Below are positions 30,257-34,284 of a DNA stretch of 64,000 nt, one piece after another. The notes under the pieces are model-generated. The model searched no databases. It was given only the letters and a program-made list of their open reading frames with translations, and was not told the DNA's origin. The DNA lies in contig CACZML010000005.1 in NCBI GenBank assembly GCA_902782235.1, positions 1,091 through 65,090 on the forward strand, written 5' to 3'. The DNA is from Oscillospiraceae bacterium. Lineage in GTDB: Bacteria; Bacillota; Clostridia; Saccharofermentanales; Saccharofermentanaceae. The stretch's first letter is position 1. The number at the start of each line of letters is the position of its first letter. Position numbers and translations under genes: made by a program.

Positions 30257-31804
30257 TTATTTATTCAAACCATACAAAACGAACATCTCGTTTTCAAAAA
30301 CTGTCTCATTATCAGGAAGCTCGACCTCAAGTTCCCCTGTAAAACCTGTTTTGAACTTAAGATAGTAGTCTGCATCAGCCAGCTCATGACCGTTAACCCC
30401 GTATCTGAAGCTCTTACGGCCGGTATTAAGATAAAGCATTCTGGGCTTTTCGAAGCATATTACGCTTTGCGGGTCTGTATTACCGCTGATGTACTGATAA
30501 GTCTCTATTGCATAGGAAGAATAAGCATCTTCTTTCGGGTTCTCGCCCCAATGAGTAATGTTGTCATATGCTTTTCGCGCGCCATAAGAGCAAACATTAA
30601 TAAGCACCAAAACAGCAGTAATAACTATCAGCACCTTACAGATCTTTGGGATTACTGATGCCAATTTCTTCTTAACAGAATCCTTCTTTATCTTAGCCGC
30701 CATTTTCCTGCTGAACTTTTTGATAAGATCTGCCGCGAGAACAATACCATTTGCAGCGTAAAGCAGAACAAAAGGAAGAACATTATAGATATATCTGGGT
30801 CCCTGTACATAAGGAAGATTGCTGTTTGCGATTATCGTTCCCATGAGAAGCACTGTCAGATAAATGTTTTTCTTCTGAAAGCCCGTAACGATCATTCCCA
30901 CAAGGAATAAAACAAACAGGATATTGCCTTCGCCTGCAATGATCTTAAAATACTTGAAGATCATTTCGAGATAGTAATGGAATAGTGCGGATTTATCTAT
31001 CTGGACAGAGAAGTCACTGAAATTTGTTGTCGCGGGCAAGAGCCAGAGTCTTTCGGAGACAAGAACAAATAATCCGAAAAGCAAATATGGAAGCAGATGT
31101 TGAATGATCATGCGTTTGCGGTTAGAAGACTTTTTTACCAGAGGATAAAGAAGCAGTATATGTTCGGCAAACGCGAGAACACATACAGCCGAGCCGCTCA
31201 GACGGGTCTCATATGTAAACCATAAAGACAGGCTATAGACTATGCCAACAGCAATTACACTTCTTCCCTTTTCCTCAAGCCCGCATATACACTCCATCAG
31301 AAGTATCGTAAGTATACAGAAGAATACAAAAGGAATATCAGAATAAAGCTGGTTCAAAGCGCTGAACAGATAACTGCTCATGCAAAAGATAACGGAAAGA
31401 ACAAACGAGAAATGGACAGGAAGCCTTTTCCGGAATAAAAGGACGAGCGCGCCTGCCGTAAGCGCAAGACACAAAATCTGGGGCAATTTATAAAAGATAA
31501 CGGTATCGGCAGAAAATCCGGCAATCTTATATATTACTGACAATAAAAGCGGATAACCCCAGACATAAACGAGAGAGCCTGATTCAATTGCTTCCTGAGG
31601 AAGATCGGAAGGATGGTAGAAAAGATTCATCTGAGCCTGTTCGGGAAGCTTTCCATCAGCAATAGCTATTCCCTCACTGATATATGCGGCACAATCATCG
31701 CCCCAGGGATAAATACCTGTTGTAAGACTGAATGAACCGAACAGTAAAACTATAAGCGTTGCAGCTAATGCGAACAGCCAATCTGTTTTAGAAAATAATC
31801 TCAT
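30257..31804 (-). CDS. Multi-pass membrane protein, probable GT-C fold (ArnT/PMT-like) glycosyltransferase
   Basis: About 11-12 hydrophobic helices, WGDD..AY in the first loop, YxWGYP, SDIPF, RY..xLP and a soluble C-terminal domain. The family call is an inference. Confidence 0.6.
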   Translation of the reverse strand: MRLFSKTDWLFALAATLIVLLFGSFSLTTGIYPWGDDCAAYISEGIAIADGKLPEQAQMNLFYHPSDLPQEAIESGSLVYVWGYPLLLSVIYKIAGFSADTVIFYKLPQILCLALTAGALVLLFRKRLPVHFSFVLSVIFCMSSYLFSALNQLYSDIPFVFFCILTILLMECICGLEEKGRSVIAVGIVYSLSLWFTYETRLSGSAVCVLAFAEHILLLYPLVKKSSNRKRMIIQHLLPYLLFGLFVLVSERLWLLPATTNFSDFSVQIDKSALFHYYLEMIFKYFKIIAGEGNILFVLFLVGMIVTGFQKKNIYLTVLLMGTIIANSNLPYVQGPRYIYNVLPFVLLYAANGIVLAADLIKKFSRKMAAKIKKDSVKKKLASVIPKICKVLIVITAVLVLINVCSYGARKAYDNITHWGENPKEDAYSSYAIETYQYISGNTDPQSVICFEKPRMLYLNTGRKSFRYGVNGHELADADYYLKFKTGFTGELEVELPDNETVFENEMFVLYGLNK

Positions 31805-31860
31805 TAAACTTCCTGAACATAATAAGAACTCTACGAAAAGTCTAACACTAGCCGGAAATA

Positions 31861-31902
31861 ATAAAAAGGACTCTGATTATCACTAATCAAAGTCCTTTTA
31901 TT
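31861..31902 (-). terminator. Hairpin terminator after the tRNA-Pro pair
   Basis: AAAAGGACT.TGATTA-tcac-TAATCA.AGTCCTTTT inverted repeat. Confidence 0.75.
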
Positions 31903-31978
31903 GGTCGGAGTGACGGGACTTGAACCCACGACCTCTTGCTCCCTAAGCAAGCACTCTAGCCACCTGAGCTACACCCCG
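31902..31978 (-). tRNA. tRNA-Pro, anticodon AGG (A34; unusual in bacteria)
   Basis: CGGGGTG TA GCTC-AGGTGGCTA-GAGT G CTTGC-TT AGG GA-GCAAG AGGTC GTGGG-TTCAAGT-CCCGT CACTCCG A CCA. Full cloverleaf with C1:G72, A73, G37 and encoded CCA. Confidence 0.93.
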
Positions 31979-32007
31979 ATGATCTCTGACTCGTTAAGGA
32001 AAATTTT

Positions 32008-32083
32008 TGGTCGGAGTGGCGGGACTTGAACCCACGGCCTCCTGCTCCCGAAGCAGGCACTCTACCACCTGAGCCACACCCCG
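32008..32083 (-). tRNA. tRNA-Pro, anticodon CGG
   Basis: CGGGGTG TG GCTC-AGGTGGTA-GAGT G CCTGC-TT CGG GA-GCAGG AGGCC GTGGG-TTCAAGT-CCCGC CACTCCG A CCA. Confidence 0.97.
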
Positions 32084-32113
32084 TTGGAGTATTCCTCTAA
32101 CAAGCCTATAAAT

Positions 32114-32142
32114 CTTATAACAACGGAATAAATTATGCAAGA
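32114..32142 (-). promoter_or_regulatory. Sigma-A-like promoter of the tRNA-Pro pair
   Basis: Minus strand TTGCAT-17 nt-TAAGAT, about 30 nt upstream of tRNA-Pro(CGG). Confidence 0.55.
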
Positions 32143-32208
32143 CATATTTTCAAATAAGAAAAAATATCTTCTAAAAACCCGCAAACGCCCTAAAAATATG
32201 AATCAGAA

Positions 32209-32242
32209 AAAATAAAGGCTGCCACTTTTAAGTGACAGCCTC
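32209..32242 (-). terminator. Intrinsic terminator after ispH-rpsA
   Basis: Minus strand AGGCTGTCAC-ttaaaa-GTGGCAGCCT-TTATTTTT. Confidence 0.85.
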
Positions 32243-32262
32243 TAATGTAATCTGATAAATAA

Positions 32263-34284
32263 TTACTCTTCTGTTGTCTCAGCAGCTTCTTCAGCAGGTG
32301 CTTCCTCAGCAGCTTCCTCAGGGAGCTCAGGATCGATAGGAGCAACTTCCTTGATGGAGATAGAGATTCTTCTCTCCTCGGGTTCGATCTTGATAACCTT
32401 AGCCTGAACAACCTGGCCTACAGAAAGAGCATCCTCAGGCTTCTCAAGTCTTCTGGAAGAGATCTGGGAAACGTGGCAAAGTGCGTCGAGATCAGGCTCA
32501 AGCTGTACGAAAGCGCCGAACTTTGTGAGACGAACTACTGTACCCTGAACGATGCAGCCAACAGGCATTCTCTCTTCGATGTTGTAGTAAGGATCGTCCT
32601 CAAGCTTCTTGTAGCCAAGAGAGATCTTCTTTGTTTCCTTATCGAAAGACTTAACGTAAACGTCAACTTCCTCGCCAACCTTCAGAACGTCAGCAGGCTT
32701 AGCGTTGCGGCTCCATGAGAGCTCGGAAACGTGAACGAGACCATCAACACCGCCGATATCGATGAATGCACCGAAATCAACAAGGCTTCTAACAACACCG
32801 GTATAGTGCTTGCCTTCCTCGATGTTGTCCCAGATCTCAGCGCTCTTCTTGCGGCGCTCTTCGGAAACGATGATTCTGTGGCTTCCGGAGATTCTAAGAC
32901 GGCCCTTCTCTGTGTCGAACTTAGTTACGAGAACATCAAGTGTCTGGCCAACATAGGACTCGAGATCCTTAACTTCGCCTGTCTTGATCTGTGTTCTGTG
33001 GATATAGATATCAACGCCCTTGTAAGAACCGATAACGCCGTCCTTAACAGTACGTGTGATCTTAACTGAAATAGGAGTCTTGTTCTTGTAAGCTTCCTCG
33101 ATCTCAGCTCTGCCCTTCTCGGACTCTACGTCATTCTTAGAAAGGATGATTTCCTTGCCTTGATCGGAATTCTTGATGCTTCTGACCTTAACGGTGACTT
33201 CAACGTGCTCGGCAATTGCCTTGTCAAGATCGAATTCAGGATCCGAATCAAACTCCTTACGTGAAATTCTACCTTCGGACTTGTCGTGTACGTCTACGTA
33301 TACATAGTCGTCGTCTGCAGAGGTAATCGTGCCCTTTACTACAGCACCTCTTCTAACCTGCGCAATTAAATCGACAGCATTGGCAAACTCTGTGTCAAAG
33401 CCCTGATTTGTGATCTTTTCTTCTTCGTTCATTTGTTGAACAACCTCCAAAATAATAGCTTCCGGTGTAGATGCACCCGCTGTGATACCGACTTTATCAG
33501 TTGGAAGTATATCCCCATTTTGAATAAGGCTTCTAACCTCTGTGCCGGAATTCACAAGGAATGTTCTTGCACAACGACCTTTGCAGATGTCCAAAAGCTT
33601 AGTGGTGTTCGAACTGTGAGCAGAACCGATGACTATCATCGAATCTGATACCTCAGAGAGCGAAGCGGCTTCCTTTTGCCTACTTTCAGTCGTAATACAT
33701 ATTGTATCAAAAACATTATATTTTTCAATTTTATTTTTAACAATCTGGCATATTTTTTTAAAAGTATCGTTTGAAAAGGTAGTTTGCGATATCAAAATAG
33801 CGGATTCAAGGGGAAAATCGAGGCTTTCAAGATCCTCCGGAGCCTTTATAACAGCGCATTTCACGCCATAACCTTCTGCTTCTCCCAATATGCCGGTTAC
33901 CTCAGGATGTCCTTTGGTTCCTGCGATGATAATATTCATTCCCTTCTCCGCATTCTCCCTTACGATCTTGTGGATCTTGGCAACGAAGGGACAAGTCATG
34001 TCCCGTATATCGCAGTTTTTTGCCTTTAATATTCTTATCTCATCAGGAGTAACGCCGTGTGCTCTGACGATTACGACAGAATTTTCAGGACAGTCTTCTG
34101 CTTTTTCGCAGATTATAAATCCGCCTTTAACAAGCTGGTCAACAACATATTTGTTATGAACTATCTCGCCAAGCATCACGAGTTTTCTGCCGTCATTACC
34201 TGAACTGACTGCATCCTGTGCAGCCGTGACGGCATTCTTTACGCCAAAGCAGAAACCTGATGATCTAGCAACAGTTACGTTCAT
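32263..34284 (-). CDS. ispH: Bifunctional IspH / 30S ribosomal protein S1 fusion
   Basis: IspH GFCFGV, HN, TCPFV, HPEV, DTIC, SSNT and TAGASTP, followed by S1 repeats (DFGAFIDIGGVDGLVHVSELSW). Confidence 0.95.
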   Translation of the reverse strand: MNVTVARSSGFCFGVKNAVTAAQDAVSSGNDGRKLVMLGEIVHNKYVVDQLVKGGFIICEKAEDCPENSVVIVRAHGVTPDEIRILKAKNCDIRDMTCPFVAKIHKIVRENAEKGMNIIIAGTKGHPEVTGILGEAEGYGVKCAVIKAPEDLESLDFPLESAILISQTTFSNDTFKKICQIVKNKIEKYNVFDTICITTESRQKEAASLSEVSDSMIVIGSAHSSNTTKLLDICKGRCARTFLVNSGTEVRSLIQNGDILPTDKVGITAGASTPEAIILEVVQQMNEEEKITNQGFDTEFANAVDLIAQVRRGAVVKGTITSADDDYVYVDVHDKSEGRISRKEFDSDPEFDLDKAIAEHVEVTVKVRSIKNSDQGKEIILSKNDVESEKGRAEIEEAYKNKTPISVKITRTVKDGVIGSYKGVDIYIHRTQIKTGEVKDLESYVGQTLDVLVTKFDTEKGRLRISGSHRIIVSEERRKKSAEIWDNIEEGKHYTGVVRSLVDFGAFIDIGGVDGLVHVSELSWSRNAKPADVLKVGEEVDVYVKSFDKETKKISLGYKKLEDDPYYNIEERMPVGCIVQGTVVRLTKFGAFVQLEPDLDALCHVSQISSRRLEKPEDALSVGQVVQAKVIKIEPEERRISISIKEVAPIDPELPEEAAEEAPAEEAAETTEE

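Follow-up and report, generated by a model that had tools for sequence, protein, structure and literature searches.

A natural tRNA-Pro(AGG), apparently derived from tRNA-Pro(GGG), in a genus of rumen Clostridia, with A34 most likely unmodified

We describe a gene for a proline tRNA with the anticodon AGG in a genome of rumen Clostridia. We suggest that it encodes a functional major proline isoacceptor, descended from the tRNA-Pro(GGG) gene behind ispH-S1, and that its A34 most likely stays unmodified; we put the probability of this explanation as a whole at about 0.58. The crown group of the genus would have gained the changes G34A and U38A together with a T-stem like that of tRNA-Pro(CGG), with which the gene stands in tandem. 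With a Watson-Crick A:U pair the tRNA would decode CCU, and through a tolerant A34-C pairing, for which no broadened TadA would be needed, also CCC. The UGG and CGG tRNAs would cover CCA and CCG.

Results

The tRNA gene and its locus

The gene lies in the window, by which we mean the whole 64,000-nt stretch of DNA that was analysed. ARAGORN finds two tRNA genes there, both on the minus strand, tRNA-Pro(AGG) and tRNA-Pro(CGG) (Table 1). The minus-strand sequence of the former is CGGGGTGTAGCTCAGGTGGCTAGAGTGCTTGCTTAGGGAGCAAGAGGTCGTGGGTTCAAGTCCCGTCACTCCGACCA. An earlier note on this DNA had claimed an intact tRNA-Pro(AGG) at this place, and this is upheld by ARAGORN and by the Rfam tRNA model RF00005 (58 bits, E=1.9e-11, against a cut-off of 29). 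The anticodon loop reads U32 U33 A34 G35 G36 G37 A38 (UUAGGGA). Because of an extra base in the D-loop, ARAGORN puts the anticodon at gene position 35. A34 is a T on the plus strand, one base away from 31945, where the earlier note had placed it. Direct reading gives the ProRS identity set G35, G36, A73 and C1-G72, and in addition G37 for TrmD, the enzyme that methylates G37 to m1G37; G72, A73, G37 and the encoded CCA had all been claimed before, and all are present in the minus-strand sequence. The same identity bases occur in CGG and GGG relatives. With its canonical cloverleaf and these identity elements, the tRNA is a predicted ProRS substrate.

Table 1. Positions of the features discussed (window positions unless another locus is named)
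Feature	Position	Strand	Basis or remark
Intrinsic terminator of the tRNA pair, 16-pair stem then T-rich tail	31864..31899	minus	Terminator scan
tRNA-Pro(AGG), 77 nt, encoded CCA	31902..31978	minus	ARAGORN; Rfam RF00005; sequence
Anticodon A34, G35, G36	31944, 31943, 31942	minus	Sequence reading
G37, A38	31941, 31940	minus	Sequence reading
Spacer between CGG and AGG genes, 29 nt	31979..32007	minus	Sole part varying among strains, in DNA and RNA contigs
tRNA-Pro(CGG), upstream partner of AGG	32008..32083	minus	ARAGORN; Rfam 62.7 bits
Leader of the CGG-AGG operon, presumed to hold its promoter, 129 nt	32084..32212	minus	Bounded by the ispH-S1 terminator
Terminator of ispH-S1	32244-32213	minus	Terminator scan
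IspH(LytB)-S1 fusion gene, 673 aa	32263..34284	minus	Pfam LYTB and 4 S1 domains
tadA	G000:C37:6874-7344 (L191:375-845)		Pfam MafB19-deam and dCMP_cyt_deam_1
tRNA-Arg(ACG) of this genome	G000:C2 31119-31195 (L151:170-246)

The AGG gene begins 29 nt beyond the end of the CGG gene, which leaves no space for a promoter between the two. Contigs from RNA runs span the CGG gene, the spacer and the AGG gene, so that the AGG gene is probably served by a promoter that lies upstream of CGG and is common to both. The terminator of ispH-S1 bounds the leader, which must therefore hold the promoter for both tRNAs. A sigma-70 scan gave no consensus promoter in 31750-32350; hexamers resembling TTGCAT...TATAAG can be seen in the leader, by eye only. 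Thus the upstream promoter of its own that had been claimed for the AGG gene is not supported. The terminator claimed for it is confirmed, with the stem and the T-rich tail placed directly after the CCA. Weak Rfam hits to L20_leader and P34 at 32204-32294 on the minus strand were rejected, as they are merely the ispH-S1 terminator. Directly downstream of the tRNA pair there is an ORF of 515 aa (30257-31804, minus strand) with no Pfam match.

Metatranscriptome contigs cover both tRNAs, which answers the earlier question of expression: tRNA-Pro(AGG) is transcribed. In run X29 the depth is 476-2060 over the pair and 0 in both flanks, the drop to 0 coming below 31900. Contigs that span CGG, spacer and AGG were obtained from several RNA runs and, as contigs built from short reads, are consistent with a dicistronic CGG-AGG precursor. 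All differences between the RNA contigs and the window fall at 31983-32006, within the spacer.

The earlier note had called for a check on a G/A error at the anticodon. Every sampled word of 31850-32130 is present in at least 20 metagenome runs of gut DNA from cattle and sheep, and over the same interval there are 0 differences in contigs (2-6.6 kb) from three independent studies of DNA metagenomes. A34 is confirmed by these independent DNA contigs and by 71 of 88 congeners.

Distribution and origin

The genome that holds the window (2.55 Mb, 210 contigs, 92% complete, 46% GC, 47 tRNAs) has proline tRNAs with the anticodons AGG, CGG and UGG and none with GGG. Its sole other A34 tRNA is Arg(ACG). 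The genome is a bin, and it carries two differing partial S10 ribosomal-protein operons (S19-L22-S3-L16) and two secY genes of differing sequence, on the contig stretches C4:27266-36850, C194:1-2378, C7:19252-20620 and C4:25918-27265. These duplicates indicate a second organism or strain in the bin, in agreement with the contamination estimate of 3.7%.

We sampled 131 species genomes of the family, 88 from the host genus, here called g1, and 43 from seven sister genera. Identical or near-identical tRNA-Pro(AGG) genes with the loop UUAGGGA are present in 71 of the 88 genomes of g1, and tRNA-Pro(GGG) in none. In the sister genera the counts are reversed, with tRNA-Pro(GGG) of loop UUGGGGU in 42 of 43 genomes and AGG in none. 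The CGG-AGG tandem occurs in 19 of 24 same-genus species genomes; in its stead, a GGG gene stands alone in other families of the order. In an order-wide sample of 201 genomes, there was no AGG outside g1 among the matches listed. In a gene tree of TadA the species with AGG make up the crown clade of g1, and G012 and G022, which lack both AGG and GGG, are basal. Both genes are missing from nine congeners of above 90% completeness. The earlier note had asked whether tRNA-Pro(GGG) is missing, whether further ANN tRNAs exist and whether close relatives keep the gene. GGG is absent here and from all 88 sampled congeners, this genome has no ANN tRNA other than that for Arg, and the AGG gene is conserved in the same-genus genomes counted above.

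A homolog of ispH-S1 directly precedes tRNA-Pro(GGG) in the sister genera g34 and g28 (tblastx; L202, L204, L209). Since the same flank is found for GGG and for the CGG-AGG pair, AGG is the positional ortholog of GGG, and the CGG gene appears to have come to lie between ispH-S1 and AGG. Positions 1-48 of the AGG tRNA are those of the GGG tRNA of family f2 except at 34 and 38, and the extra D-loop base is common to both. Thus the anticodon loop differs from the GGG type by two changes, G34A and U38A. The likeness between the T-stems of the AGG gene and the adjacent CGG gene suggests that the two tandem copies have exchanged sequence. In the congener G019 the anticodon stem has a compensatory C28-G42 pair, and this argues for selection on the structure of the tRNA. 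Judged by synteny and sequence, tRNA-Pro(AGG) appears to have replaced tRNA-Pro(GGG) at the latter's own locus in g1.

Codon usage

CCU and CCC together are the majority of the proline codons in this genome (Table 2), so the AGG tRNA would serve the majority codons. The congener G012, which has neither the AGG nor the GGG gene, uses CCC for only 1% of its proline codons; abundant CCC thus seems to depend on tRNA-Pro(AGG). From codon use, we predict that tRNA-Pro(AGG) is the main proline decoder of the genus. A superwobble decoder, as proposed in the earlier note, is not needed, for the UGG and CGG isoacceptors are kept and no single tRNA has to read the whole proline four-codon box.

Table 2. 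Share of each codon among proline codons
Set	CCU	CCC	CCA	CCG	CCU+CCC
This genome, 2017 long ORFs	45%	22%	4%	29%	67%
This genome, highly expressed genes, 380 Pro codons (ribosomal proteins, EF-Tu, EF-G, RpoB/C, DnaK)	58%	18%	3%	21%	76%
Five AGG genomes of g1	33-45%	22-44%	2-4%	18-29%	67-78%
Twelve GGG relatives				48-63% in 11/12	25-44% in 11/12, 58% in G182
G012 (same genus, neither AGG nor GGG, GC 36%)	49%	1%	44%	6%

No consistent difference in CCY was seen between five AGG and five GGG genomes of Lachnospiraceae. The shift from CCG to CCY is therefore a correlation within a single clade, that is, one evolutionary event. Highly expressed genes prefer U-ending codons for Pro, and equally for Thr, Ala and Val, whose tRNAs have G34. 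Because the preference also holds in these G34 boxes, it does not discriminate between A34 and I34. Several codons are strongly avoided in this genome, namely CCA (4%), CUA (1.4%), GGG (3.5%), and CGA and CGG (6% each). By contrast, ACA, GCA and UCA hold shares of 30-39% in their respective boxes. Avoidance of CCA is common to several relatives with tRNA-Pro(GGG).

Recurrence in other bacteria

When 185,579 species genomes were scanned with a generic pattern, at least 120 loci matched. Bona fide tRNA-Pro(AGG) is present in at least 114 GTDB species, with at least 68 distinct sequences; the hosts among the matches listed include Lachnospiraceae, Cytophagales, Puniceicoccales and other groups. 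Among 141 evenly drawn species genomes of Lachnospiraceae (G280-G424), 26 (~18%) have AGG and about 35 have GGG. Five other AGG genomes that were checked have UGG alongside, three of them also have CGG, and GGG is absent. The earlier note had spoken of a non-standard bacterial decoder. Non-standard is true, and these counts show that it is not very rare. A literature phrase search for bacterial tRNA-Pro(AGG) returned only eukaryotic or unrelated work, and the A34 surveys of Rafels-Ybern 2018 and 2019 lay outside its scope.

The other natural tRNA-Pro(AGG) genes have the same loop UUAGGGA as the gene described here. Their many distinct sequences point to independent origins, and their bodies are often closer to the CGG type. 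Unlike g1, the sampled AGG bearers of Lachnospiraceae do not have CCY-dominant codon usage. All AGG loops of the sampled Lachnospiraceae read UUAGGGA, and their GGG loops read CUGGGGG or AUGGGGU. U32 and A38 are found in every AGG tRNA of the g1 and Lachnospiraceae samples; GGG tRNAs carry C32/G38, A32/U38 or U32/U38. Since U32/A38 is common to UGG and CGG proline tRNAs too, the coupling with A34 fits two readings: the 32-38 pair may be tuned to a wobble base that is weaker, or the AGG genes may descend from CGG-type genes or have been converted by them. By itself it would not point to TadA. We regard the tRNA-Pro(AGG) of this genome as a well-documented case of a rare but recurrent type, and as no new kind of system.

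TadA of the genus

The earlier note had presupposed a TadA, and a tadA gene is indeed found in the genome that encodes A34. The enzyme is of the normal short type and is present in all 41 relatives searched. Only two columns of the TadA alignment, L38 and M135, are specific to the AGG crown clade. At residue 38, Leu replaces the conserved Glu of the N-x-R-E loop that precedes the HAE zinc site. This Glu is present in 15 of 16 TadAs of neighbouring families, and basal members of g1 without AGG have Val or Ile. The branch of the TadA tree that leads to the AGG clade is not long. No TadA signature of AGG was found when 14 AGG and 14 GGG genomes of Lachnospiraceae were compared, the two sets being alike in the substrate loop. 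We therefore rejected co-variation of TadA with AGG, because residue 38 is already hydrophobic in basal congeners and Lachnospiraceae have no signature. Two further motifs of g1 TadA, ECPIGC and HGHNH, are unusual.

Position 34 in RNA contigs

Contigs from 11 RNA runs (including X25-X27, X29-X31, X35, X36, X38, X42) read the genomic A at A34, with no variant contig. These are Logan contigs, which drop minority variants, and those that cover A34 represent long, precursor-like molecules. For the anticodon arm of Arg(ACG), contigs of 100% identity have a depth of 0-17 versus ~930-1450 for contigs with one or two mismatches. This contrast is as expected for I34, the mismatch lying somewhere within the arm. 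The organism's own tRNA-Arg(ACG) was assembled only in X29, where its A34 is unedited at a depth of 1332 and its 3' trailer has a depth of ~667. The unedited A34 and the deep trailer indicate that the libraries are rich in precursors. As for the reading of Arg(ACG) in X29, either unprocessed and unedited precursors dominate, or this organism edits its Arg tRNA incompletely. Since the canonical substrate of TadA also reads A34, the RNA contigs are compatible with editing of the mature tRNA, and the lack of G at position 34 of the proline tRNA is weak to moderate evidence.

Discussion

An A34 proline tRNA can be deaminated to inosine or can act as it is encoded, and we favor the latter. E. coli TadA acting on orthogonal tRNAs edits ACG fully, AUG about half, AAG to ~15% and AGG to 0%, with an order of preference at position 35 of C > U > A > G (PMC11066159). 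In the same host an orthogonal tRNA(AGG) that stayed unmodified, free of inosine, read CCU and CCC in a ratio of 56:44 (Schmitt et al. 2024, PMC11066159), and an A34 proline-tRNA mutant of Salmonella behaved likewise, according to the account of Chen et al. 2002 given in PMC11066159. These tRNAs share their anticodon with the one described here and, as far as that account goes for Salmonella, read CCU and CCC about equally while unmodified. Reading of CCC by A34 in such constructs would explain the heavy use of CCC in g1. Descent from a GGG tRNA by G34A, as in the Salmonella type of case, is also found here by synteny and in positions 1-48. The constructs differ in that they were made in the laboratory; the tRNA of g1 is natural, genus-wide and a predicted major isoacceptor with U38A added. 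Together with G35 and the lack of TadA co-variation, these precedents favor an unmodified A34, and the many independent origins suggested by at least 68 distinct sequences fit the same reading. Against it stand the TadA of g1, which is without the conserved Glu, and the shift from CCG to CCY, which resembles the recoding reported for I34 tRNA-Leu (PMC13249217). With all the evidence weighed, A34 is probably unmodified.

The main alternative is that the TadA of the genus deaminates A34 to give tRNA-Pro(IGG), which would read CCU, CCC and weakly CCA, in a eukaryote-like expansion of substrate range. TadA is present in all relatives searched, and the proline loop matches the Arg(ACG) loop of the same organism, CUACGGA, at every position but 32 and 35. 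G34A goes together with A38, a base within the mRNA editing motif YUAMGRA defined for S. pyogenes TadA (PMC11472039); UUAGGGA fits this motif everywhere except at 35. Position 35 is also where the loop departs from the core motif U33-A34-C35-G36, since it has G where TadA substrates have C, or A in Streptococcus. Firmicute TadAs have already widened to A35, as shown for S. pyogenes, which accepts A35 and has the editing motif UAMG (PMC11472039), and for O. oeni (PMC8072771). However, among the TadAs tested to date none has accepted G35 (PMC11066159, PMC11472039), and O. oeni edits its Arg and Leu tRNAs and leaves its G35 tRNAs, Thr(AGU) and Ser(AGA), unmodified (PMC8072771). The Leu that g1 TadA has just before HAE, where 15 of 16 TadAs of other families have Glu, also speaks for deamination, but the change from Glu to a hydrophobic residue is found as well in basal congeners without the gene, and AGG-bearing Lachnospiraceae show no TadA signature. 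No A-to-G change was seen at position 34 in the RNA contigs. In codon usage, both CCU and CCC gain where CCG loses, as CUU and CUC gain with tRNA-Leu(IAG) (PMC13249217), but CCA is not enriched and stays at 2-4%. Thus I34 made by a broadened TadA is possible but not favored, and we consider it rather unlikely. Slightly more doubtful is the fuller proposal that the TadA with the lost Glu makes IGG, the first bacterial I34 proline tRNA, and that this drove a genus-wide recoding from CCG to CCU and CCC. Such recoding would parallel that of I34 tRNA-Leu in Lactobacillales and the eukaryotic ADAT expansion.

The closest natural counterpart of the replacement is the Firmicute tRNA-Leu(AAG to IAG) of Streptococcus, Lactobacillales and O. 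oeni, in which G34 was replaced clade-wide by A34, as in g1. The two cases also share the rise of U- and C-ending codons, reported for CUU and CUC with I34 tRNA-Leu in Lactobacillales (PMC13249217), and the presence of TadA. They differ at position 35: Leu(AAG) carries A35, and experiments have demonstrated its editing, whereas Pro(AGG) has G35 and gives no editing signal in the precursor-rich RNA contigs. Thr(AGU) and Ser(AGA) of O. oeni are natural bacterial tRNAs that combine A34 with G35 and are unedited, though they serve other amino acids and their position 36 is not G.

Under a third explanation, AGG is a near-neutral, tolerated variant of a dispensable isoacceptor, and UGG with a modified U34 reads most CCU and CCC. 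Many Firmicutes get by on tRNA-Pro(UGG) alone. The nine congeners above 90% completeness that have neither AGG nor GGG, and the free alternation of AGG and GGG in Lachnospiraceae with no consistent difference in codon usage, also speak for it. We nevertheless consider it improbable, since the sequence is strictly conserved across 71 species with a compensatory stem change, the gene is transcribed, CCC is nearly purged in the congener without the gene as against 22-44% with AGG, and CCU and CCC reach 76% in highly expressed genes. A G/A miscall in an ordinary GGG or CGG tRNA, conceivable in a bin of 210 contigs with 3.7% contamination, is a negligible explanation, since the same sequence occurs in contigs of independent DNA runs and RNA runs and the AGG anticodon is also found in 71 other species genomes.

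By textbook wobble rules, codons ending in C cannot be read by an unmodified A34, and A34 outside tRNA-Arg is described as something that bacteria avoid. In g1 an entire genus appears to use an A34 proline tRNA as its main decoder while its use of CCC stays heavy. The strict link between A34 and U32/A38 is also relevant to the tuning of decoding by the 32-38 pair. If A34 is edited to inosine, the specificity of TadA would have widened to G35 in bacteria. If A34 is unmodified, as we favor, the genus would confirm, in nature and on a large scale, what was found in the laboratory, namely that within the proline box A34 reads CCC.
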